In this document: positions 3,683 to 15,329 of the stretch, piece after piece
How positions within the stretch are numbered: the stretch's first letter is position 1
Layout of the letters: every line of letters begins with the position of its first letter
Assembly: GCA_013166835.1 (NCBI GenBank)
Contig: JABLTI010000066.1
Coordinates: 1 to 15,329 of the forward strand
DNA from: Promethearchaeati archaeon
GTDB taxonomy: Archaea; Asgardarchaeota; Heimdallarchaeia; JABLTI01
DNA: 15,329 nucleotides
Reading direction: 5' to 3'
The notes under the pieces: generated by a model
The model's input: only the letters and a program-made list of their open reading frames with translations
What the model was told of the DNA's origin: nothing
The model's database searches: none
Translations under genes and position numbers: made by a program

Positions 3683-3885
3683 TTTTACAAAACTTGCTTT
3701 AAGAATTAATCTTCCTCTAACTATTTAAATAATACAATAAAGTTAGGAATTCAAACTTTAGAAAATATAGCTCGCTAATGTTAAAAAAATAAATATTTTA
3801 CAATAAGAATTAACACTTTCTTAATGATTATTTTATTGTATTAGCGGTTCAATCTTGAATATAGATAAAAAATGGGGTGCGTACC

Positions 3886-4773
3886 ATGACAGAACCACTA
3901 ATAATTGATGCTCATGAAAGTCATGTAACACATATTGATTTTACTAAAGATAGTAATGTACTAATCTCTGCTGGAATGGATAATGCAATCAGATTTTGGA
4001 AAGCACCAGATTGGGAATACAGTTTTGAATTGGATGGTCATACAAAAAGCGTTAATACTTTTGCTTTAGATGAGGTTGATAGGGTTTTATATACAGGTTC
4101 CAGCGATAATACAATTAAACTTTGGGATTTAAGTGAGCGGAAAGAAATTCTATCACTAAAAGGTCATAAAAAACCAATAATAAAATTGGTAATTTCACCA
4201 GCAAAAGCATTATTGGCTTCCGGTTCTTATGATGGAGATATTCGTCTATGGTCTTTGGAAAATTTGGTAGAATATAGTGTTTTAAATGGTCATCCTAGTC
4301 ATTCTACTGGAATTAGTTTTGCACCTGATTGTTCATATATTATAACAGGTGGAATGGATAAGAATATGCTAATATGGGAATTGCCTTCTGCTACTCTTAA
4401 GAAGAAGATTCAATCTCATAAAGATGCTACCTTAGCTATTCATCATTTCGCTAAAGGTAAGAAACTGATTTCTATAGGTCTTGACCAAATAATTAGGATT
4501 TGGAAAACTAGTGATTGGTCTATTGAAAAGAAATTAAAAGTAAAGCATAAGAAAATTAATTCGCTTACAATTTCACCTAATGAGAAATATGTAGCTACTA
4601 CTTGTGATAATAATTTCCAAGTATGGTCATTAAAGGAAGAAGAATTACTCAGTGATATTACAATCAAACCCAAAGGTGTTTACACTACAGCATTTTCACC
4701 TGATGGGAAATTGTTTGCTGTTGGTTCTGCTGACAAAAAAATCAGAATTTGGAAACTGAAGGACCTTGTATAA
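3886..4773 (+). CDS. Stand-alone WD40-repeat protein (7-bladed beta-propeller)
   Basis: Seven ~42-aa repeats with GH/AH/SH...S[AG]xxDxxI[RK]xW[DKSE] signatures. ATG 3886 is preferred because GGGGTG at 3874-3879 reads as an SD. Confidence 0.93.
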   Translation: MTEPLIIDAHESHVTHIDFTKDSNVLISAGMDNAIRFWKAPDWEYSFELDGHTKSVNTFALDEVDRVLYTGSSDNTIKLWDLSERKEILSLKGHKKPIIKLVISPAKALLASGSYDGDIRLWSLENLVEYSVLNGHPSHSTGISFAPDCSYIITGGMDKNMLIWELPSATLKKKIQSHKDATLAIHHFAKGKKLISIGLDQIIRIWKTSDWSIEKKLKVKHKKINSLTISPNEKYVATTCDNNFQVWSLKEEELLSDITIKPKGVYTTAFSPDGKLFAVGSADKKIRIWKLKDLV

Positions 4774-4942: not shown

Positions 4943-5980
4943 TTGCATATTCCTGATGGCGTTTTACCATTAAATCATGTTTTGATTTATCTAGCTATTT
5001 CAGCATTAATTATAGTAATATCAATAATACAAAGTAGAAACAGCTTAACATTAAAACAAATACCAATAGTAGGAGTACTCGCTGCTGGTTTATTTGCAGC
5101 TCAGATGTTTAATTTTCCCATTCCAGCAGGATCTAGTGGGCACCTGATTGGGACTGCTTTAGCAACAGCTCTTGTTGGTCCCTGGGTTGGTATACTAATT
5201 CTAACGGCAATTCTAATAATTCAATCATTCTTTGGTGACGGAGGATTTTTAGCTTTAGGAGCTAATATCATAAATATGGCAATTATCGGTGCTTTTGTTA
5301 CTTTTTTGTTTTTTGTTCTGATACCAAAGAAATGGCGAGAGAAAAAAGTCATGTTTGCAACCTTTGCAGGTATCTCGGGATTCTTATCTACAATGTTCAT
5401 GGCTTTTTTTGCAAGTGTAGAATTAATAATTGCACAACTGGGTAGTCCTGGTATAATTTTCGGTTCTATGTTAGGATTACATGCTATAATTGGTTTAGTA
5501 GAAGGTGTAATTACCTTTGCTTTAGTTTTCTTCACGTTCAAAGCCCAAGCTTCATTATTTGAAGCAGCAGAAGATTCCTTATACATCAAAGGCAAGAAGG
5601 AAATCAAGGAAGATATACCGCCATCATATAAATTCCCTGTTTGGGGTGCTGTCTCAACTGTAGGAATATTTGGGATAATGTCAATTTTTGGGATAGTTGC
5701 AAGTGAGAATCCAGATGGACTTGAACGAACATTCGAATTTCTTGTAAAAGATGGTTCGGTTCTCACAATATTAGAAACTGGTTTGTTTGGATTTCCGGAT
5801 GGTTTAGGTTGGTCAATATTACAGATGGCAATTATCATGGTGATATTCTTCACAATAATTCTGATAATAAACTATTTAGTATTTATATTAAGAAGAAGAA
5901 TTTATCGAAAATCACATATTGAAATTCAACAAAATGCAGAAAAATTATCTAGTGAACTTAATCATGATGTTTTTAATTAA
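4943..5980 (+). CDS. nikMN: ECF Ni/Co transporter substrate-binding component, NikM/CbiM fused to a NikN-like PDGLE domain
   Basis: N-terminal metal-binding MHIPDG (TTG start), AQMFNFPIPAGSSGHLIG, FGDGG and HAIIGLVEG. Two extra C-terminal TMs flank ASENPDGLE (PDGLE at 5711-5725). Confidence 0.9.
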   Translation: MHIPDGVLPLNHVLIYLAISALIIVISIIQSRNSLTLKQIPIVGVLAAGLFAAQMFNFPIPAGSSGHLIGTALATALVGPWVGILILTAILIIQSFFGDGGFLALGANIINMAIIGAFVTFLFFVLIPKKWREKKVMFATFAGISGFLSTMFMAFFASVELIIAQLGSPGIIFGSMLGLHAIIGLVEGVITFALVFFTFKAQASLFEAAEDSLYIKGKKEIKEDIPPSYKFPVWGAVSTVGIFGIMSIFGIVASENPDGLERTFEFLVKDGSVLTILETGLFGFPDGLGWSILQMAIIMVIFFTIILIINYLVFILRRRIYRKSHIEIQQNAEKLSSELNHDVFN

Positions 5981-6004
5981 AAAAAAGGATAATTTTTTTA
6001 ATTA
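5974..6004 (+). repeat. 12-bp A/T-only inverted repeat between nikMN and the Q gene
   Basis: TAATTAAAAAAA (5974-5985), 7-nt loop, TTTTTTTAATTA (5993-6004). Confidence 0.4.
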
Positions 6005-6026
6005 CTTCATTTTATCTTTCACAATC

Positions 6027-6806
6027 ATGTCTAGTAATAATTTTTTACTCCCTTTTAGAGATAAAAGACTAACAAAACCACTATCAAATATAGGATTAAC
6101 AATTACTGTTGTGTTATCTTTAGTGTTTTTAAATATCAGTCAAGAATTGATAGATATATTATTTGTTTATCTATTGACATTCGTTTTCTTTCTAATTTTC
6201 AGAGCAAATTTCCTACGAACAATAAAAATTATTCTATCAGCATCCATCATAATATTTTTCATGGGTTTACCTAGTTTCTTTATGAAGCAAGGTTCAATAT
6301 TATTCATCATACCTATTGGAAAATATAGTATTAATTTCCATGATATCAGTGTTTACAGAGCAATCTATATTTGGGTTAGAGGATTCTTTTCTGTATCCAT
6401 AATAACGTTATACACAACAATATTAACTGTTCAAGAATTCATCTCTGCACTTCGTAGCTTGTTCATACCGAATATTCTAGTTACATTAATCCTCTTAATA
6501 CTAAGATATACTCCAATGTTATATGAACAAGGAAATGAGATAAAAACTGCTCAAGAATTACGAGGTATATCAACTGCTCCTTTTGGTAGAAGATTTTCTG
6601 CTGCAACTTCTAGGATTGGTGGAACGTTAATACGGTCTTTGAGAAAAGGTACAGAGGTTTACGAGGGAATGATTCTGAGAGGATTAGAAAATTCTGAATT
6701 TGTTAAAAGAAATTATGTAAAATGGTTAGATTTTCTTGTTATACCATTAATTGCTGGACTTTTTAGTTTATTTGCAGGAGGAATTATTAGTGGATACATT
6801 GGTTGA
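6027..6806 (+). CDS. cbiQ: ECF transporter transmembrane T component (CbiQ/NikQ)
   Basis: Multi-TM protein with ALRSLFIP...LILRY and the two conserved Arg motifs AQELRG and MILRG. It lies between the M and O genes. ATG 6027 avoids a 62-nt overlap with nikMN (the track start is 5919). Confidence 0.88.
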   Translation: MSSNNFLLPFRDKRLTKPLSNIGLTITVVLSLVFLNISQELIDILFVYLLTFVFFLIFRANFLRTIKIILSASIIIFFMGLPSFFMKQGSILFIIPIGKYSINFHDISVYRAIYIWVRGFFSVSIITLYTTILTVQEFISALRSLFIPNILVTLILLILRYTPMLYEQGNEIKTAQELRGISTAPFGRRFSAATSRIGGTLIRSLRKGTEVYEGMILRGLENSEFVKRNYVKWLDFLVIPLIAGLFSLFAGGIISGYIG

Positions 6807-7509
6807 GTTTCAAAACGTTGAATTCGAATATCCGGAAAAAACATTTGGGTTATACAACATAAATTTCCAAATAGAAACCGGGAAAAAATATGCTATATGT
6901 GGAAAAAATGGTGCTGGTAAAACTACTTTGCTAAGACTTCTTATGGGATTAGAAGAAATAAAAACAGGAACAATTAAGATTGAAGGACAAGAACTATCTA
7001 AAAGGAATTTAAAAGAAATAAGACAGAAAATAGGGTTTGTTTTTCAAAATCCTGATTCACAAGTTTTTTCCGCAAGTGTATATGAAGATGTTGCTTTTGG
7101 ACCAAGAAATATGGGATTAGAAGCAGAAGAGATTGATAAAAGAGTAATTTCTGCATTAGAAAATGTTGATCTCGTTGAATACAAAGATCGATCCCCATAT
7201 CAATTATCATTTGGTCAAAAGAAAAGAGTAGCTATTGCAGGGATTTTAGCAATGGATCCAGCTATAATTGTATTAGATGAACCTTTCTCGAATCTTGATT
7301 ATCCTTCAAAAAGCTCATTAAAGGAACTACTGGAAACAAAAGTAATTCATAAAGGTAAAACAATTATTTTTGCATCCCATAATAGAAAACTTATCAATGA
7401 ATGGGCAGATATAGCATTGTTTCTTGATAATGGAGAAATAATTTATTCAGATATAGCTAAAGGGCTTGTAAATATAGAATTGGCAGATAAATATCTAGGT
7501 CCGTTATAA
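6790..7509 (+). CDS. cbiO: ECF transporter ATPase (CbiO/NikO)
   Basis: Walker A GKNGAGKTT, Q-loop FQNPDSQ, signature LSFGQKKR, Walker B IIVLDEP and H-loop ASH. GTG 6790 follows GGAGG (6777-6781). Confidence 0.93.
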   Translation: MDTLVEFQNVEFEYPEKTFGLYNINFQIETGKKYAICGKNGAGKTTLLRLLMGLEEIKTGTIKIEGQELSKRNLKEIRQKIGFVFQNPDSQVFSASVYEDVAFGPRNMGLEAEEIDKRVISALENVDLVEYKDRSPYQLSFGQKKRVAIAGILAMDPAIIVLDEPFSNLDYPSKSSLKELLETKVIHKGKTIIFASHNRKLINEWADIALFLDNGEIIYSDIAKGLVNIELADKYLGPL

Positions 7510-7750: not shown

Positions 7751-8587
7751 ATGGAAAATATTATACGAATTCAACCTTATCTGGAGAGAAATGATAAGGA
7801 ATTTAAATCCTATTTAGAATTTTTAAAAAATGTTGTTTTGATTTTAGAGCCCAACTTCCAATTTTTTGAGATATTTTTAGAAGAAGACAGAGAAGATAAA
7901 CCATATGAATCTCTACTTATTAAGACAAAATTCGGAACTGAAAAGCAAGGATTTGAAGTTATTTTATCCGAAGTATATGAACAAGTTGCCAATATTGTTG
8001 TTGTAGATTGTGTAATTGTGCGAGCTTATGGGTTAAACAATGATTCTGAGTTAGAAATTAGATCAATAAGAGAGTATGATGAACCCTTTTACCTTGAATT
8101 AAAAGTAGTGGGTAATCCTGAAGAATCACAAGAAATAACTAAAAAATTTAAAGATAAATTCGAAAGAGCACACATCTCAAAAGAGAAATTAAAAAAAGAG
8201 CTTCTGATTTTAAATACTTCACTAAAAAGAAGTGCATGGTATGCCGTTGAAATGAGAGCTAAAAGTATCCTGGAAGATTTTCCAGAAGAACCTCATGCAT
8301 TACTAGCTCTGGCAATTGCACGAGTTGCTCAAGGAGATTTAGAAACTCGGAAAGAAATATTGCAACATATCTCTAAATTGAAACCAGATAAACCTGATAA
8401 ATTATACAATATTGGTATAATCCATAAAAAAAGAAAAGAATATGTAGAAGCTATAACATCACTTCGAGAATCAATTAAAGTGGAATCAGTAGAAGAACCA
8501 GTTCTTAAAATCGTAAGTCAAGTTCAAGCAGCTTTATCTGAAGTAGAAGATGCTCTAAAAACCTATGAAAAAGCATCAAAAACATAG
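7751..8587 (+). CDS. Protein with an unknown acidic N-terminal domain and C-terminal TPR-like repeats
   Basis: FPEEPHALLALAIARVAQGD, KPDKPDKLYNIGIIHKKRKEYVEAITSLRESI and VEDALKTYEKA match TPR helix pairs. GGGG SD-like sequence before the ATG. Confidence 0.7.
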   Translation: MENIIRIQPYLERNDKEFKSYLEFLKNVVLILEPNFQFFEIFLEEDREDKPYESLLIKTKFGTEKQGFEVILSEVYEQVANIVVVDCVIVRAYGLNNDSELEIRSIREYDEPFYLELKVVGNPEESQEITKKFKDKFERAHISKEKLKKELLILNTSLKRSAWYAVEMRAKSILEDFPEEPHALLALAIARVAQGDLETRKEILQHISKLKPDKPDKLYNIGIIHKKRKEYVEAITSLRESIKVESVEEPVLKIVSQVQAALSEVEDALKTYEKASKT

Positions 8588-8685
8588 TTTAAGGCTTGAT
8601 AGATTTTTACCTCTTCTTAACTTTGACTCAACATGAATACTTTAAAACTAAAAGCACTTATCGTTAAATGTAAAAGTACAGATAG

Positions 8686-9198
8686 GTGATCCTTATAGCA
8701 AAACCATTATGCCTTTGTATTTCTGTTATGAGTAAAAAGGGTTTAGAAGTAACAAAGGTGTATCCTAATATTTTAAATCAAGCAATTATTAATGAAATTG
8801 CTTTGAAGAGTATGCCATTTGGTGCTAAAGAAGGGGATTTTACAACTATTACTTTATCAGATAATAAAATATTTTCTGGACTTGTTTTTACAGTTCCACA
8901 TCTTTTGAGTAGAGATAATATTGCATCGCTAATTGCTGTGTTTGAATCCATGAGTTATAATGCAGAGATTTTACAAGAAAATTTCACTCTACTAATTAAC
9001 TCATTAAAAGAGTTTAACGTAATCTCATCAGATAAGGTTACAGATCTTCTACCAGAGATATTTGCAGGCATTAAACTAGAGAAATTTAACTTGAACATTA
9101 AACGTGGAAAGAATATAACATTTAATTTTACAAATCTTGATGCAAAATTTGTGAAGAAAGATAAGTTAAAAGAATTCACAAGTGATGTTTGGGGCTAA
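8686..9198 (+). CDS. Hypothetical protein, putative uDENN/longin-like fold (AVL9/DENN-like)
   Basis: The pattern hydrophobic strand-KKGxEVxxxYP...IALKSMPxGA...DF...hydrophobic strand...R...SLIAV resembles uDENN modules as I recall them. The start codon is uncertain (GTG 8686, ATA 8695 or ATG 8728). The gene itself is likely real and the fold call is tentative. Confidence 0.5.
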   Translation: MILIAKPLCLCISVMSKKGLEVTKVYPNILNQAIINEIALKSMPFGAKEGDFTTITLSDNKIFSGLVFTVPHLLSRDNIASLIAVFESMSYNAEILQENFTLLINSLKEFNVISSDKVTDLLPEIFAGIKLEKFNLNIKRGKNITFNFTNLDAKFVKKDKLKEFTSDVWG

Positions 9199-9236
9199 AC
9201 CAAAAGATACAAAACTGGAAACATAAATCTCTAACT

Positions 9237-10058
9237 ATGGAGATTACTGCTTATACTTGGTATTTCTTAATAACAGCTACTATTGTATGTGTCGCATTAA
9301 TAATCTCCAATATAATATTTCTGAGACACTATCTCAAACTAAAAACACCAGGATCAATTCTATTACTGCTAACATATTTTCTTTTTACAATAGGAGAAAT
9401 ATTAAATACAACAGGATTGTGGTATTATACCTTTGTTTCAGAAACAAGCCCTATCAGTGGATATTTTGAATTAAACTTCGCTTTCTTTTATGCCGTGGGT
9501 TACATTTTCTTCTACTTCTTTGCTAATAGACATATACTTGAAGACAATGATTTAGTGAAATCTCTAACCGCTATTATATTAACGATAATTATTAGTGTAA
9601 CCTCATCTTTAATGTATGTAGAATTAGTCTATCAAAATGTGGATCCTATTTTTTATAATGAAATTATTGTAATTGGACCAAATTTAAAACAATATTTACC
9701 AACTATGTTGGCAGGATTAATGATTTTCATTCCAATATTTTTGTTCATACATTTACGAATTATTATTGGTATTACTAAGCTAAGAAGAAGTATTGAAGAC
9801 TCTGTTTCTAAAACAGGATTCACTTTTATACTCTTTACAATAATCAGCTTTGTTTTATCTGCATTAATTGCTAGTACATTCATAATGCCAAATGTTGGAA
9901 ATTATCCCAGATTATATACAACACTACATTCCTTAAGAATTCTAACAATAATTATTGCTGTCCTGCTCGGGTATTTTGGATGGACCCTTCCAAACTGGTT
10001 AAAGAAAAGATTACAAAAGAGAGATGCAAAAAAACTTGAGCAAAATAATGTTAGTTAA
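9237..10058 (+). CDS. Stand-alone 7-transmembrane protein of unknown function
   Basis: Seven hydrophobic segments counted by eye, basic loops after TM1 and TM5, and a C-terminal GWTLPNWLKKRL. ATG 9237 is preferred over the overlapping TTG 9189. Confidence 0.75.
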   Translation: MEITAYTWYFLITATIVCVALIISNIIFLRHYLKLKTPGSILLLLTYFLFTIGEILNTTGLWYYTFVSETSPISGYFELNFAFFYAVGYIFFYFFANRHILEDNDLVKSLTAIILTIIISVTSSLMYVELVYQNVDPIFYNEIIVIGPNLKQYLPTMLAGLMIFIPIFLFIHLRIIIGITKLRRSIEDSVSKTGFTFILFTIISFVLSALIASTFIMPNVGNYPRLYTTLHSLRILTIIIAVLLGYFGWTLPNWLKKRLQKRDAKKLEQNNVS

Positions 10059-10378
10059 ACCATCCTATGAAGCTGACAACCATGTTATGCAATAATACTA
10101 CTGATAAGAGTTCCAATAACACCTAGAAGAGCAAATAAATTAAGCTTAAACCATCTTTCTTCAGGTATTTCACCTATCACTCTCCAATAAAAAACCCTAG
10201 TCATCATTATTGATAGCCTTTTTCCGTTATTTGTTAGCATATTTCCTATATCGTGCAATTTAAATTTAATGAGAATAAGTATTATTGTGAGAGAAAGCAG
10301 GTGAACTAAATCACTATTTCTATATTTTATTGCTTTCTCTCCTCCCTCCCCCAAATTCTCAGAATTAACTTTGGACAG

Positions 10379-11452
10379 CTACATTTTAGCTTTTTCACGA
10401 CTCACTTTTGCTTCTAAGCTGTTACCCATTTCTTCATAAATGTCAGCGATAACAAACCAATGACTCTTATCATGTGGTTCGAATTCAGCTATTTTTTTCC
10501 AAACAACAAGAGCTTGTTGAAACATCTTTTTCTCTTTTAAAATAAGACCACTCTTTTTGAAATACTTCATACCTCTTCTGATTTGTTTCTTTTCAATGTA
10601 GAGAGTGACTAATTCAGTTAAACCTGTTAGATCCTTTGGATCAAGAGACAAACCATGAGCACCAAATTCATCGGCTTTCTCTTTTAATCCCATTTCTTCG
10701 TAGAGTGTTACAAGATAAAACCAATAATTGGGATCTTTGGGATAATCATTGAATCTCTTCAGTTTTTTAAGAATAATATAATGTATATTGTAAATCATTA
10801 AGCGGATTTTATGGATCTCCATGAACCACATTCCAGAAGATTCGTACATTCTATCAATAGCAATGGGATAATATTCCTTATCCTTTGGTATGAAAAATGC
10901 GAAAGAATAATCTGGAAAAAGCAAATTAAAGAATCGAGCAGTACTTTTGATAATCTTCACTAATGGAGTATTGTTTTTTATCCTATAATAATCAATTACT
11001 TTTTTTGTCCAAAACTCAAATGCTTGTTCTCGATATTCTGGTATTTTTTCAAAAGGTCGTAAACCTATTTTTGAAATTATTTCAGAGTATTTTGCAGGAT
11101 TATCCATCTCGAGCAAGTCAAGAATTTTCATATAAGATGCTCGAACGTATTTTTGCATCATGAGAACGTCTTCTGTTGGAGGTTCCTTATCAGGTTTAAA
11201 AGCAGAAAATAAATCATCCATTGGATCAGAACCAGGAGGAGGAGCTTTTCGAACAAGAAGACATTCATCACCATGTTCTAAACCAATAGTATCAACTCTA
11301 TAGTTTGGAAATTGAGTTTCAAAATAATTTTGAATAGCAGACACAACATTCTCTAAAGAGTAGAATTTTCGCTCATCTACTGATTCAATGATTATTTTTG
11401 CCCACTCATTTTTTTGTTCTTCACTTGGTTCAGGAATTGGAGGGTTACTCAT
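10379..11452 (-). CDS. Protein with a duplicated N-terminal domain and about three C-terminal TPR repeats
   Basis: YPKDPNYWFYLVTLYEEMG, LDPKDLTGLTELVTLY and FEPHDKSHWFVIADIYEEMG. Internal repeat at offset 131 aa. Confidence 0.78.
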   Translation of the reverse strand: MSNPPIPEPSEEQKNEWAKIIIESVDERKFYSLENVVSAIQNYFETQFPNYRVDTIGLEHGDECLLVRKAPPPGSDPMDDLFSAFKPDKEPPTEDVLMMQKYVRASYMKILDLLEMDNPAKYSEIISKIGLRPFEKIPEYREQAFEFWTKKVIDYYRIKNNTPLVKIIKSTARFFNLLFPDYSFAFFIPKDKEYYPIAIDRMYESSGMWFMEIHKIRLMIYNIHYIILKKLKRFNDYPKDPNYWFYLVTLYEEMGLKEKADEFGAHGLSLDPKDLTGLTELVTLYIEKKQIRRGMKYFKKSGLILKEKKMFQQALVVWKKIAEFEPHDKSHWFVIADIYEEMGNSLEAKVSREKAKM

Positions 11453-11666: not shown

Positions 11667-14333
11667 ATGAAAAAAAGGTTAATTGGGCTTATTCTTGTGT
11701 TGATGTTTACAACTGTTTTTACACCGTTTACAACTAGTGTAGCAGTAAGAGAAGAAGCTAATTTGGAAATGGCAACAAATAGCATCCCAAATGATGTAAT
11801 CAAAGACTTAGTACTAGAAGCAGTTTCTGATAACATCACACAAATTGATGCTTGGGATAACAACTATTATGCACAAAACAATGTGGATGTAGAAGGAAAT
11901 ATTGCTTTCATAAGTTGTTATGGAGATGGGTTATTAGCTGTTAACGTAAGTAGTCCAATAAATCCGTACATTGTTGGACAATATCAAATAGGCGGTAATC
12001 GATACTTACAGGATGTTTACGTTTTAGGTGATATCGCGTATTTAGCCTGCGATACTTACGGAGTAGTTTCGTTAAATGTTTCAGATCCAACGAATATGTA
12101 TCAATTAGATAGATATGATACCACAGGGGCTGCTTATGATTTAGTTGCTGACGGAAATTTTGTTTTTGTGGCAGGATTAACCGGGGGAATGCAAATAATC
12201 GATATAACTGATCCAACCGATATTTTCCAGGTTGGAAATTATTACAATGGGTCAGCTTATTGCTACGAAGTAGAAAAAGAAGGATCCTATATTTATTCAA
12301 CAACTCGAAACTATGGAATGGATATCATCGATATCTCTGATGAAACAACTCCAACAAAAGTGGCAAATTATTACGGTGGATATTCCATCAATGATGTAAA
12401 AGTGAAAGGAAATTATGCTTATTGTGCTTCAGGCAGTTTAGGCTTAGAAGTAGTAGATGTAACAGATAAAGCAAATCCAACCTATGTAAACAGTCAATAT
12501 ACTTCAGGTTCATATTCTAAAATCTTGTTAGATGGAAATACAGCTTATATTGGGAGAAATACAAACCCAATATTAGTGATAGATATCACTACTCCTTCAA
12601 GTCCAACTTATATCACTAATATTGCTAATACAAATGGAAGATCTTTGACAGATTTCTGTGTCAATGAAAGCTATTTATATACAGTATTTGAATACGATGG
12701 ATTTGATATTTATGATATATCACAAACCGCTTCACCAAGTTTAACAGCATCTATCAAAAATTACGCAAATTTCAATGATGTAATTTTAAAGGATAACTAC
12801 GCTTTTGTTGCTAGTCTTTATTTTGGTCTAGTTGTTTTCGATGTTTCTGATCCATATAACATTGTAAAGGTGTATGATGAGAAATTGACAGGTATCTACG
12901 CAAGAAAGCTAGATATCGTCGGTGACTTGCTTTTCTTAGCAAATAACGATTTAGAAGTCTATAATATATCGGATCCAACGAATCCAACATTTATAGCTGA
13001 ATTTACACCTAATAATATCCGTGATATGAAAATTGTGGGAAATTATGCATACTGTGCAGCATATACTGACGGCTTGGTAATAGTTAATATTACTGACATC
13101 TATGCTATGACTTTTGTAAGTGGCATAACTGATGGAAATTACTCACAAGCAATCGATGTAGCAGGAAATTACGCATACTTAGCCTCGCAAAGTGGAGGAC
13201 TACAAATAATCAATATTACCAATATTGCAACACCTGAATACGTCTACAGAAATAATCCTGGAGGAGTTGCCTATGATGTTTGGGCAAAACAAGGTTTAGT
13301 GTTTCTTGCTAATGGTTGGGGAGGATTGTGTGCTTTTAATACAACAGATTTTGAAAATATATTGCATATTGACAATGTAGATCCGGGTGGGTATTCCTAC
13401 GGTATAACCGTCGAAGGTCAGTATATGTTTCTAGCTGATGGTTGGTCAGGAGTACATATCTACGAATGGAGTCCGACATCAGAATTACTAGAAGTTGGGC
13501 ATTTCTATGATGACGAGGGTCATGCATTTGGAATTGAAGTTCTTAACGGAACCATCTACTGTGCAGATACGCAAGGGGGATTAGAAGTTCTCTTGCATGA
13601 TAACGATGGAGATACGCTCTCAAATCACGTGGAACAATATTACTATGGAACAGATATTGACAAAGTAGATACAGATGGGGATACAATCAACGATAATGTC
13701 GAAGTTTATACATACGGAACAGACCCAGCAAATGCAGACACAGATGGAGATGGATTCAATGACTACGAAGAAATAACAGCAGGGGTAGACGGTTACATTA
13801 CAAATCCACTTCGATCAGATAGTGATTATGACTTGTTAAGTGACTACGAAGAATACAATTCCTACGGAACAAATCCATTATTGGATGATACCGATGGCGA
13901 TGGTCTGGATGATGGTTCTGAAGTGTTAGTATATTATACTGATCCGCTAGATACAGACACAGATGGTGATACGATTACCGATCAAGAAGAAGTTCTCCCA
14001 GGAGTAGATGGGTACGTGACAGATCCATTGGATGCAGACACCGATAGTGACGGAATAGAAGACTACGAGGAAATTATTTTGGGAACAGATGGTTTCGTAA
14101 CAGATCCAACAGATGAAGACACGGATAATGACGGTCACATAGATGGAGATGAAATTACAGCAGGAACTGATCCCACAGATCCAAATGATCCCGCACCAAC
14201 TACTTCCCCAAGTCCTACTCCGACATTTACTAGTGGTTTCCAGAATGGATTAATCTTTGGTTTTTCATTGATGGCTCTAGTAGCTATTGTTGTTTGGATA
14301 ACTGATCGTCGAAGAATTAAGTATACAGGTTAA
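11667..14333 (+). CDS. Membrane-anchored surface protein: signal peptide, 14 LVIVD repeats, 8 acidic TSP3-like DxDxDG repeats, PT linker and C-terminal TM
   Basis: MKKRLIGLILVLMF signal. Repeats of V.GNYAY.A....GL.I.D[IV]SDP..P and DTDGDGxxDxEE...GTDP. PAPTTSPSPTPT linker, TM LIFGFSLMALVAIVVWI and RRRIK tail. Confidence 0.9.
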   Translation: MKKRLIGLILVLMFTTVFTPFTTSVAVREEANLEMATNSIPNDVIKDLVLEAVSDNITQIDAWDNNYYAQNNVDVEGNIAFISCYGDGLLAVNVSSPINPYIVGQYQIGGNRYLQDVYVLGDIAYLACDTYGVVSLNVSDPTNMYQLDRYDTTGAAYDLVADGNFVFVAGLTGGMQIIDITDPTDIFQVGNYYNGSAYCYEVEKEGSYIYSTTRNYGMDIIDISDETTPTKVANYYGGYSINDVKVKGNYAYCASGSLGLEVVDVTDKANPTYVNSQYTSGSYSKILLDGNTAYIGRNTNPILVIDITTPSSPTYITNIANTNGRSLTDFCVNESYLYTVFEYDGFDIYDISQTASPSLTASIKNYANFNDVILKDNYAFVASLYFGLVVFDVSDPYNIVKVYDEKLTGIYARKLDIVGDLLFLANNDLEVYNISDPTNPTFIAEFTPNNIRDMKIVGNYAYCAAYTDGLVIVNITDIYAMTFVSGITDGNYSQAIDVAGNYAYLASQSGGLQIINITNIATPEYVYRNNPGGVAYDVWAKQGLVFLANGWGGLCAFNTTDFENILHIDNVDPGGYSYGITVEGQYMFLADGWSGVHIYEWSPTSELLEVGHFYDDEGHAFGIEVLNGTIYCADTQGGLEVLLHDNDGDTLSNHVEQYYYGTDIDKVDTDGDTINDNVEVYTYGTDPANADTDGDGFNDYEEITAGVDGYITNPLRSDSDYDLLSDYEEYNSYGTNPLLDDTDGDGLDDGSEVLVYYTDPLDTDTDGDTITDQEEVLPGVDGYVTDPLDADTDSDGIEDYEEIILGTDGFVTDPTDEDTDNDGHIDGDEITAGTDPTDPNDPAPTTSPSPTPTFTSGFQNGLIFGFSLMALVAIVVWITDRRRIKYTG
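13599..14192 (+). repeat. Eight coding acidic (probable Ca-binding) TSP3-like repeats of 23 or 27 aa
   Basis: Units begin DNDGD, DTDGD, DTDGDG, DSDYD, DTDGDG, DTDGD, DTDSDG and DTDNDG, and most end T[DN]P. Confidence 0.85.
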
Positions 14334-14380: not shown

Positions 14381-14456
14381 TAGTTGTATTTTGATAACGC
14401 AATTATATGTAAGTTGTTGGAAAATAAATTTAACAGAGAAGATTCTTTGGTTGATT

Positions 14457-14975
14457 ATGATTTGTGTGGATATCAGTAAATGCACGGGATGCAAAAGATG
14501 CGAAACTGCATGTGCTTTTTTTCACACAGAAAGAGTTAGTAATCATCTTTCAAGAATTAAAATTTTGAATTTATATGAAATTGGAATTGACAGTCCAGTT
14601 GTTTGTCAGCAATGCAATGAGCGTTACTGCATAAATGATTGTCCAGATGAAGCATTAAGTATTGGTTCTCAAGGAGAAATTCTGGTAAACAGAGATGTTT
14701 GTTCCTTATGTTTTAGTTGTGAAGATGCATGTCCGATTGGGGCTATTCAACTTTTCAATGATGAGGTTCTTGTCTGTGATCTTTGTTCGGGAGATCCTGA
14801 ATGCATTAAAGCTTGCACTGAAAATGCCTTATCTTTAAAATCAAGAGAGGAAAAAACTTCTCTATCTGAGTATAAGAACGTCTCAGTTAAGTTAACACCA
14901 AGTCAAAAACGATTCGAATATATAAGAAAACAAGGAATCGGGTTGCGAAAAACATGGAGGGAGAATCGTGTTTAG
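14457..14975 (+). CDS. Four-cluster 4Fe-4S ferredoxin-like electron-transfer subunit (DmsB/HydN-type) of the AOR complex
   Basis: CTGCKRCETAC, CQQCNERYCINDCP, CSLCFSCEDACP and CDLCSGDPECIKAC. It overlaps the AOR start by 8 nt. ATG 14457 is preferred to the track start 14391. Confidence 0.9.
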   Translation: MICVDISKCTGCKRCETACAFFHTERVSNHLSRIKILNLYEIGIDSPVVCQQCNERYCINDCPDEALSIGSQGEILVNRDVCSLCFSCEDACPIGAIQLFNDEVLVCDLCSGDPECIKACTENALSLKSREEKTSLSEYKNVSVKLTPSQKRFEYIRKQGIGLRKTWRENRV

Positions 14976-15329
14976 ATATGGTTTTGGTGGAAGAATTCTC
15001 AGAATTAATCTCACTGAGAAGAATTTCAAAATAGAAATAATTTCCACCAATTGGATTAAACCACTAATTGGAGGAAGAACTGCTAATACTCAGAGACTCT
15101 ATGACGAATTGGATTCTAACTGTGATCCACTGGGAATGGATAATATAATCATTTTTGGAGTGGGACCACTGACGGGCTCCATTCTGCCTGCTTCTGCTTA
15201 CTTTATTGTTACAGCTAAATCGCCTCTTACTGGAATTCTAGGTGATTCTGCTGCTGGTGGTTCTTTTGGTCCCGAAATGAAACAAACAGGTTTTGATCAG
15301 ATTATAATTACTGGGAAAGCAAAAGAACT
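14968..15329 (+). CDS. aor: Aldehyde:ferredoxin oxidoreductase family (AOR/WOR, tungstopterin) large subunit, N-terminal part; runs off the right edge
   Basis: Manual translation from GTG 14968 (GGAGG at 14956-14960): MFRYGFGGRILRINLT...LIGGR...DPLGMDNIIIFGVGPLTG...KSPLTGILGDSAAGGSFGPEMKQTGFDQIIITGKAKE, the AFOR_N domain. Not in the ORF track. Confidence 0.93.
   Translation, partial: MFRYGFGGRILRINLTEKNFKIEIISTNWIKPLIGGRTANTQRLYDELDSNCDPLGMDNIIIFGVGPLTGSILPASAYFIVTAKSPLTGILGDSAAGGSFGPEMKQTGFDQIIITGKAKE

Follow-up and report, generated by a model that had tools for sequence, protein, structure and literature searches.

A longin and seven-helix membrane protein gene pair from an Asgard archaeon, read as a GTPase-less variant of a longin/Arf-like GTPase/seven-helix cassette

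Does a small longin-domain protein encoded next to a seven-helix membrane protein in an archaeon serve a small GTPase when no GTPase gene stands beside the two? The question is raised by contig JABLTI010000066.1 of a Promethearchaeati archaeon (Asgardarchaeota; Heimdallarchaeia; JABLTI01). The window analysed here is this whole contig, 15,329 nucleotides (nt) long, designated G000:C168 in our survey, from an Asgard genome (G000) of about 30% G+C. Its two genes of interest encode a 170-residue longin-domain protein, designated L, and a 273-residue seven-helix protein, designated T. Comparison with related loci identifies the pair as a variant of a Heimdallarchaeial cassette, L-G-T, whose middle gene, G, encodes an Arf-family GTPase and has no counterpart in the window. 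With moderate confidence we favour the reading that the pair is a derivative of this cassette that has dispensed with its GTPase gene, and that L and T would form a membrane-bound regulatory pair, with L in the role of GTPase-activating protein (GAP), acting in trans on an Arf-like GTPase.

The cassette was defined in a survey of 34 L loci from 13 genomes; one more L-G-T locus was met outside these 34. An intact T lies downstream of L on the same strand in 29 of the 34, a broken T in one and a weak T in another, and because of this recurrent same-strand co-location the L-T arrangement is not chance. Between L and T, 20 of the loci carry an intact Arf-family G and one a fragment of G, while L is alone in three, one of which is at a contig edge. 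L is multi-copy in the genus, with up to nine places per genome, and the places of L and T coincide throughout. The genome of the window itself has a second copy on contig C175, where the L-T interval of 580 nt is occupied by a 178-residue Arf-family GTPase, with gaps of 18 and 4 nt between the genes. All four cassette GTPases that were scanned match the Pfam Arf model at 126.7 to 142.9 bits, against a cut-off of 22.3. The cassette GTPases have an amphipathic-looking N-terminus, MSFLxxLF, and their translations, like that of a stand-alone gene on contig C165 to which we return below, contain the GTPase motifs GLxxAGKT, DLGGQ, N/HKxD and SAK. One clade of eight loci is common to the trees of L, G and T (SH-aLRT 93, 98 and 100, respectively), as are three locus pairs, from which we conclude that duplication and divergence affect the cassette as one block. 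G is missing from three clades of L-T loci, and the one that includes the window consists of loci from G000, G004, G005 and G009. The window pair, judged by these comparisons, is a GTPase-less variant of the L-G-T cassette, and its tie to a small GTPase encoded elsewhere in the genome, which a sequence-only reading of the contig had supposed from adjacency, is well supported by the family context: an intervening GTPase that co-diverges with its neighbours in other loci, and a stand-alone member of the same GTPase family in this genome.

The family reaches well beyond these loci. L homologues occur in 88 of 400 Asgard genomes, and the family is small, with 65 cluster representatives among 1.84 billion at E<=1e-3. 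Sixteen distant L loci were fetched, and 12 have an Arf-like GTPase of about 300 amino acids (aa) within 3 kb; most of these 12 also have two polytopic membrane proteins of about 215 aa that are paralogues of one another (hhalign 97.5%). The Lokiarchaeial-type neighbourhood (loci L061-L068 and L073) further includes a conserved protein of about 250 aa with a faint match to Sybindin, a TRAPP longin (E 0.0069), a 421-aa FAD oxidoreductase upstream of L, and a TPR (tetratricopeptide repeat) protein of 785-798 aa convergent to the GTPase. In the genome of the window, a third and divergent L-family gene with an acidic C-terminal tail lies at a contig start (G000:C164:1-438), with neither T nor G downstream; it is followed by convergent genes resembling a CoA-dehydratase activator and subunit.

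Within the window, the locus is made up as follows.

7751..8587, plus strand: TPR1, 278 aa, with C-terminal TPR-like repeats and no assignment for the N-terminal half.
8588..8685, plus strand: the spacer between TPR1 and L, in which a T5 run (8604) precedes a TATA-like TTTAAA (8641/8642).
8686..9198, plus strand: L, a 170-aa NPRL2-like longin-domain protein with a GTG start.
9237..10058, plus strand: T, a 273-aa seven-helix membrane protein; a longer reading of its open reading frame (ORF) opens at 9189.
8684..10182, no strand assigned: the L-T two-gene unit, missing cleanly at the same site in two sister genomes (G003 and G007).
10379..11452, minus strand: TPR2, 357 aa, convergent, with C-terminal TPR repeats.

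This layout agrees with the sequence-only reading, which had described three co-oriented genes and a convergent TPR gene; its coordinates are right, and so are its gaps of about 100 and 38 nt, which measure 98 nt from the TPR1 stop to the L start and 38 nt from the L stop to the ATG at 9237. Its remark that the window contains no GTPase is equally correct, since none of the 35 ORFs in the genome that match a GTPase profile is on this contig. We place the start of T at 9237 because every orthologue opens with MEITAYTWYF. For L, the 170-aa form from the GTG at 8686 is taken as correct and a 156-aa call from an internal Met as short, because paralogues as distant as 41% identity still conserve residues 5-14, because a homologue 86% identical to L has Leu where that Met stands, and because strand b1 of the structural model described below, residues 9-16, includes part of the sequence upstream of it. 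Public gene calls of L and of five homologues begin at the internal Met (155-156 aa), which removes longin strand b1. The T5 run lies 17 nt past the TPR1 stop and the TATA-like element 44 nt ahead of the L start, whereas neither kind of element was seen in the L-T spacer; this suggests that L-T probably has a promoter of its own. A scan of the window with Rfam at gathering thresholds and with ARAGORN gave no matches, and the 320-nt spacer between T and TPR2 folds no better than its shuffles (z -0.05).

The chemistry proposed for the pair depends chiefly on the fold of L. Neither the window protein nor 46 family members match any Pfam model, uDENN, DENN and Longin included, at E<=0.1, and a profile of the L family searched against all PDB sequences returned one chance-level row (E 0.34). 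A model built from the 46-sequence alignment (pLDDT 86, pTM 0.80) has longin topology with an added C-terminal beta-hairpin. DSSP assigns strands at residues 9-16, 19-26, 52-56, 62-70 and 78-86 and helices at 32-42, 93-109 and 115-131, that is, the order b1-b2-a1-b3-b4-b5-a2-a3 with the five-stranded sheet of a longin domain. The longin domain and hairpin are all there is of the protein, core DENN and dDENN domains being absent, and the C-terminal tail terminates in a conserved D-x-W. In an exhaustive structural comparison (VIA), the best match was GATOR1 chain 8fw5_B, of about 362 residues, which we take to be NPRL2 (Z 14.8, rmsd 3.7, 153 residues aligned); residues 6-163 of the model are co-linear with residues 6-170 of that chain. 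Next came chain 8adl_S of the yeast SEA complex (Npr2; Z 13.6), the Lokiarchaeial longin 8yqg_B (Z 12.6), DENND10 (Z 11.3), FLCN (Z 10.5), adaptor sigma subunits and DENND1A (Z 9.6), and lower still SMCR8/C9orf72 (Z 8.9), Mon1-Ccz1 (Z 7.6) and TRAPP (Z 7.6); the 19 chains at Z about 8 or above, from 14.8 down to 7.9, all bear a longin domain. Foldseek gave ten rows at E<=1e-3, exclusively GATOR1/SEA entries (best E 2.4e-6), and the ESM Atlas model of the exact L sequence matches clusters of eukaryotic NPRL2 (PF06218) at TM 0.74 and 0.71. On these model comparisons, the closest relatives of L are the GAP-type longins NPRL2 and FLCN, not the DENN-type guanine nucleotide exchange factors (GEFs) of Rab. 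The earlier description of L as uDENN-like is thus apt for its fold class, longin, and fails for its family, and the accompanying DENN/Rab framing has to be replaced, the nearest longins being of GAP type and the GTPase Arf-like.

Two positions in the model deserve attention, because a GP motif and an arginine finger are described in the available sections of PMC12290439 as marks of the GAP-type longins NPRL2, FLCN and SMCR8. R76, in the loop between b4 and b5, is the most conserved polar residue of L, retained by 35 of the family's 46 rows and, among 20 distant Asgard homologues, by all but one. Sorted by type of locus, it is present in 19 of 20 L-G-T cassettes (the exception is a truncated copy), in all nine L-T loci, in the one locus whose T is broken, and in none of the four stand-alone copies of L. 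G19, at the turn before b2, occupies the GP-motif position; 36 of the family's 46 rows have glycine there, and a count over the 33 rows that cover the position gives 32. The next residue, L20 in the window, reads proline in 13 of the 46 rows, as it does in 18 of the 20 distant homologues.

The same comparisons bear on an opposite chemistry for the same module, in which L would be an exchange or recruitment platform, as most longins are (TRAPP, Mon1-Ccz1, DENN), rather than a GAP, with T as its anchor. GEF longins are among the structural matches at the scores given above, the GP-motif proline is missing in the genus, and a second longin subunit is absent from the cassette. On the other side, GAP-type longins lead clearly, both in Z and in the Atlas comparison, and the loop arginine is near-invariant and lost in stand-alone copies only. 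We consider an exchange platform unlikely. Two further searches concern L and its fusions. No fused L form of at least 357 aa was found, which is weak evidence, and the search did not cover lengths of 298-357 aa. An archaeal cluster in the ESM Atlas, of about 341 aa and with Pfam Arf throughout, has a model part of which matches L (TM 0.62, 139 residues aligned), and may be a longin-Arf fusion; if it is one, it would favour direct interaction of L with G.

The model of T (pLDDT 93, pTM 0.88) has seven transmembrane (TM) helices, which confirms the earlier 7TM assignment; the loop from TM4 to TM5 forms a beta-hairpin, and helix 8 is basic. Sixteen Lys and Arg residues fall on predicted inner segments against two on outer ones, which puts the N-terminus outside and the C-terminus inside. 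The top structural matches (VIA) are G-protein-coupled receptors (GPCRs) of several classes and microbial rhodopsins, with 211-249 residues aligned and Z of 13-15 (up to 15.3), a range that unrelated helical bundles can reach, about 14 being a typical best score for helical models. All 50 rows listed by Foldseek are GPCRs, the best at E 2.3e-3, and none is at E<=1e-3. For these reasons we call the modelled fold GPCR/rhodopsin-like and do not call T itself a GPCR. TM7 has no lysine. The family-invariant residues of T are on the cytoplasmic face: TM3 ends with Y93, F95, R98 and D103, and the turn between TM7 and helix 8 carries G248, W249 and P252.

Sequence searches place T in no established family. 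Across 36 members, no Pfam family was significant; the 7TM_GPCR_Srsx model matches one of them at E 0.56 and HisKA_7TM (PF16927) matches one at E 0.0045, while the window protein has no match to the latter. PF27675, which was outside that scan, is a precomputed Pfam label on one T homologue. The HisKA_7TM match, together with a near Atlas cluster that carries the automatic name 'Histidine kinase N-terminal 7TM region', would fit a T that works by itself as a prokaryotic 7TM sensor or transporter and lies next to L for no other reason than co-regulation. We regard such an origin for the pairing as highly improbable, given that the trees of L, G and T are congruent, that the genes of the C175 cassette are tightly packed, that the invariant residues of T are cytoplasmic, and that T has no output domain.

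Arf GTPases need a GAP for hydrolysis, and in the mechanism we favour that role would fall to L. Its candidate arginine finger, R76 in the b4-b5 loop, would sit beside the G19 turn at the GP position, as in NPRL2, FLCN and SMCR8. T would be the membrane receptor or anchor of the pair, possibly an exchange factor as well, and together the two would regulate an Arf-like GTPase at the membrane. The pair in the window would act in trans, because its own G has been lost; the candidate partners are the stand-alone GTPase encoded on C165 and the G of the complete C175 cassette. If this is right, it describes a prokaryotic small-GTPase switch, coupled to a membrane receptor and assembled from parts that eukaryotes use at the lysosome. 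A more ambitious version makes L-T the core of an archaeal switch of receptor/G-protein kind, with T sensing a signal and loading the Arf-like GTPase and L switching it off by the arginine finger; we hold this to be doubtful. On that version the window would show such a receptor-GAP core uncoupled from its own GTPase gene and acting on a GTPase encoded elsewhere. Were the version true, the logic of 7TM protein, longin GAP and Arf/Rag GTPase, as in LYCHOS-GATOR1-Rag and perhaps GPCR-G-alpha-RGS, would predate eukaryotes.

A pair that has lost its GTPase gene might also be a decaying, functionless remnant of a cassette, and the relatives of the window lend this some colour: L-T is deleted in G003 and G007, two TAA codons interrupt T in G005, and in both G005 and G009 the stand-alone GTPase related to the cassette is a pseudogene. 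Both genes in the window, however, are intact, with R76 of L and every family-invariant residue of T present. G004-G005, the only unsaturated orthologue pair for L and T, gives dN/dS of 0.25 for both genes (dS 0.17 in L, 0.15 in T), similar to TPR1 at 0.23. Metagenomic homologues at 86%, 83%, 72% and 71% identity are likewise intact. L and T of the window look functional and are under purifying selection, and we judge decay to be very unlikely.

The loss in the two sister genomes is exact. In blastn comparisons of G003 and G007 with the window, homology ends at 8683 and restarts at 10183 and 10189, so that precisely the L-T unit is missing, with the TPR1-L spacer still present in both. Because more distant genomes carry L-T at this same site, the absence in G003 and G007 is most simply explained by one deletion. 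The locus is for this reason a natural experiment, with a GTPase-less copy that is under selection and retains a candidate catalytic arginine in one genome, and an exact two-gene deletion in its sisters.

The stand-alone Arf-like gene at G000:C165:24619-25152 scores 244.7 bits against the cassette-G profile, starts with MAFFLRLF and has intact motifs; neither L nor T lies beside it. Together with other stand-alone genes it forms a clade (SH-aLRT 99) that branches from within the cassette GTPases. Its orthologues in two relatives are pseudogenes, L047:3053-3589 on contig C66 of G005 with one TAA and L048:3000-3545 on contig C58 of G009 with three; the interrupted T gene of G005 is at L020:4924-5745. 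Recoding of TAA in G005 and G009 was rejected as an explanation, since the TAA codons stand in place of Y, S and Y in one genome and of Q, Q and E in the other, and the P-loops are spoiled. A phyletic pairing of the stand-alone GTPase with GTPase-less L-T was also tried and set aside as too weak: the GTPase is found in five of seven genomes with such an L-T (two of the five being pseudogenes) and in two of five without, in a set of genomes that are related and incomplete.

Several observations weigh against L-T as a membrane-bound GAP pair working in trans, beyond the limits on the fold scores of T already given. As regards the partner, G003 has the stand-alone GTPase although L-T has been lost there; G009 has L-T, but its stand-alone GTPase contains three in-frame TAA codons and a spoiled P-loop; in G005 both T (two in-frame TAA) and the stand-alone GTPase (one TAA, P-loop lost) are broken; and in G004, a genome 84% complete, no stand-alone GTPase of the C165 kind was found. 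The C165 GTPase, by this distribution, is not an obligate partner of L-T, and a G from some other cassette is equally a candidate for the partner in trans. As regards L, the GP position reads G-L instead of G-P in the genus of the window, the equivalence of R76 to the finger of NPRL2 is putative, being read from the co-linear structural alignment, and the cassettes have no second longin gene in the manner of NPRL3, FNIP or C9orf72 in eukaryotic GAPs. As regards T, the two Lokiarchaeial membrane proteins of about 215 aa have no detectable homology to it (hhalign probabilities 0.4% and 35%).

The TPR genes raise the further possibility that the L-T variant needs no GTPase at all and works, for example, as a membrane sensor complex in which flanking TPR proteins replace G. 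That both flanking genes encode TPR proteins, as the sequence-only reading had it, stands for TPR2, which exceeds two Pfam cut-offs (TPR_17, 27.1 bits against 24.4; TPR_8, 26.4 against 25.7), and is borderline for TPR1, which is just below the cut-off for TPR_1 (26.0 bits against 27.8), with nine more TPR models below theirs. No relationship between TPR1 and TPR2 was found. G000, G004 and G005 share the order TPR1-L-T-TPR2 and G009 has TPR1-L-T, a cis GTPase is absent from three separate clades of L-T loci, and in all four Lokiarchaeial clusters examined the TPR protein of 785-798 aa adjoins the locus, which together make up the case for a GTPase-free complex. Orthologues of TPR1 are found in G003 (87% identity), G007 (86%), G004 (49%), G005 (46%) and G009 (46%), and TPR2 is kept beside the locus in G003, G004, G005 and G007. 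Both genes are under purifying selection, with dN/dS in unsaturated pairs of 0.14-0.23 for TPR1 and 0.10-0.19 for TPR2.

In G003 and G007, however, TPR1 and TPR2 remain together as convergent neighbours after the loss of the pair. These two TPR genes flank L-T in the orthologous group of the window only: no homologue of either was found at E<=1e-8 in the other two clades without G, and the Lokiarchaeial TPR protein is not similar to either at E<=10. This genome, moreover, has a great many TPR genes (43 first-look candidates), and all GTPase-less cassettes keep R76. A GTPase-free complex is on this evidence quite unlikely. The scaffold role that the sequence-only reading had given to the TPR proteins finds no support in these comparisons; of the neighbourhood that it had joined into one cassette, the L-T adjacency recurs among relatives, in the 29 loci counted above, whereas the TPR association does not extend past one orthologous group. 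We regard the flanking TPR genes as conserved neighbours rather than demonstrated parts, and the TPR link as weak.

Among known systems, the closest working analogy for the cassette is LYCHOS-GATOR1-Rag at the eukaryotic lysosome. GATOR1 (NPRL2-NPRL3-DEPDC5) is a GAP for RagA/B, and LYCHOS/GPR155 is a lysosomal protein with a GPCR domain. In either system a 7TM protein and a longin regulator go together with a small GTPase of Arf/Rag kind; L has its top structural match in the longin of a GATOR1 chain, and both have a conserved arginine in a longin loop. Binding of LYCHOS to GATOR1 is reported in the available part of 10.1101/2024.11.21.624772. The differences are considerable: L is a single 170-aa domain without the C-terminal domain of NPRL2, an NPRL3-like partner or DEPDC5, the GTPase of the cassette is Arf-like instead of Rag, sequence searches detect no similarity, and the window copy has no GTPase gene.

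A second comparison is with C9orf72-SMCR8 (CSW) and FLCN-FNIP. CSW acts on Arf1. L has the longin fold (FLCN at Z 10.5, SMCR8/C9orf72 at Z 8.9), a candidate arginine finger and the glycine of the GP position; it differs from these and other GP-motif longins in having leucine for the GP proline in the genus of the window and in being without a DENN module. Which Asgard GTPases partner the GAP-like Asgard longins is a question raised in PMC12290439, the available sections of which assign no GTPase partner to Asgard longins with a GP motif and an arginine finger.

On the GTPase side, cassette G and the C165 gene resemble the Asgard ArfR/AArf proteins in their strong Pfam Arf matches and in an N-terminus of MSFLxxLF or MAFFLRLF. 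A word search of 10.1101/2024.02.28.582541 and PMC11914678 found no discussion of the gene context or membrane-protein partners of Arf proteins. With GPCRs, heterotrimeric G proteins and RGS the likeness is one of arrangement: T is predicted to be an N-out/C-in seven-helix bundle with a helix 8, its top fold matches are GPCRs, and its family is paired with an Arf-kind GTPase and a GAP-like protein. G-alpha is thought to derive from Arf-like GTPases. T, however, is in no GPCR sequence family, its fold scores are within the range of unrelated bundles, and the cassette has no G-alpha helical domain and no beta or gamma subunit.

A prokaryotic small GTPase with a regulator of longin or roadblock fold is also found in the Asgard operon of LAMTOR1-like, Rab-like GTPase and DENN genes (Liu et al., 10.1101/2020.10.19.343400) and in bacterial MglA-MglB; as far as the available accounts go, the GTPase there is Rab-like or MglA and a 7TM partner is absent. 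The haloarchaeal ArvA/ArvB/ArvC genes were considered and rejected as a parallel, since the accessible text of PMC10927574 describes a different GTPase operon with DUF2073 and DUF2072 partners.

We found no description of a longin/Arf-like GTPase/7TM cassette in the literature, in a search that did not extend to the supplements of Asgard papers, which may list the families. The parts themselves are known: in the sections available to us, Asgard ArfR/AArf GTPases and NPRL2-like longins are each already described (10.1101/2024.02.28.582541, PMC11914678, 10.1101/2020.10.19.343400, PMC12290439), and Liu et al. (10.1101/2020.10.19.343400) report many NPRL2-like longin asCOGs in Asgard archaea. Arf-, Rag- and Rab-like GTPases are numerous in these archaea, as are longin and roadblock proteins, and regulators are hard to match to GTPases because the genes are said to be mostly unlinked; the relevant part of PMC10933270 states that GTPase genes of MK-D1 are generally outside operons with longin or roadblock genes. 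The L-G-T family supplies triplets in which a longin, an Arf-like GTPase and a 7TM protein come ready matched for expression and assay, and so native candidate partners for archaeal Arf switches. To this the window adds a GTPase-less, TPR-flanked variant, a clean deletion in sister genomes, and the pattern of the loop arginine across cassette types.

The remainder of the window contains genes of other kinds. Some 200 nt downstream of TPR2, at 10183-10378, are about 90% identical in G003 and G007 and include a C-rich CTCCTCCCTCCCCC tract. An 89-aa ORF at 10085-10354 on the minus strand has no Pfam match, and the stretch has neither an Rfam match nor an unusual fold energy. Immediately upstream of TPR1, at 4943-7509, is an ECF operon of CbiM/CbiQ/CbiO type for cobalt or nickel uptake (CbiM 164 bits, CbiQ 78 bits, ABC_tran 122 bits). 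At 11667-14333, a region with G+C up to 0.39 encodes a secreted protein of 888 aa, probably a cell-surface protein, which combines about ten LVIVD repeats with bacterial TSP3 calcium-binding repeats and has a membrane anchor at its C-terminus. This gene is followed at 14391-15327 by a 4Fe-4S ferredoxin-domain protein and then the N-terminus of an aldehyde:ferredoxin oxidoreductase, cut at the contig end. The 298-aa product of 3877-4773 is a WD40 beta-propeller that strongly matches WD40 models of eukaryotic type and is typical of the 'eukaryotic signature' proteins of Asgard archaea.

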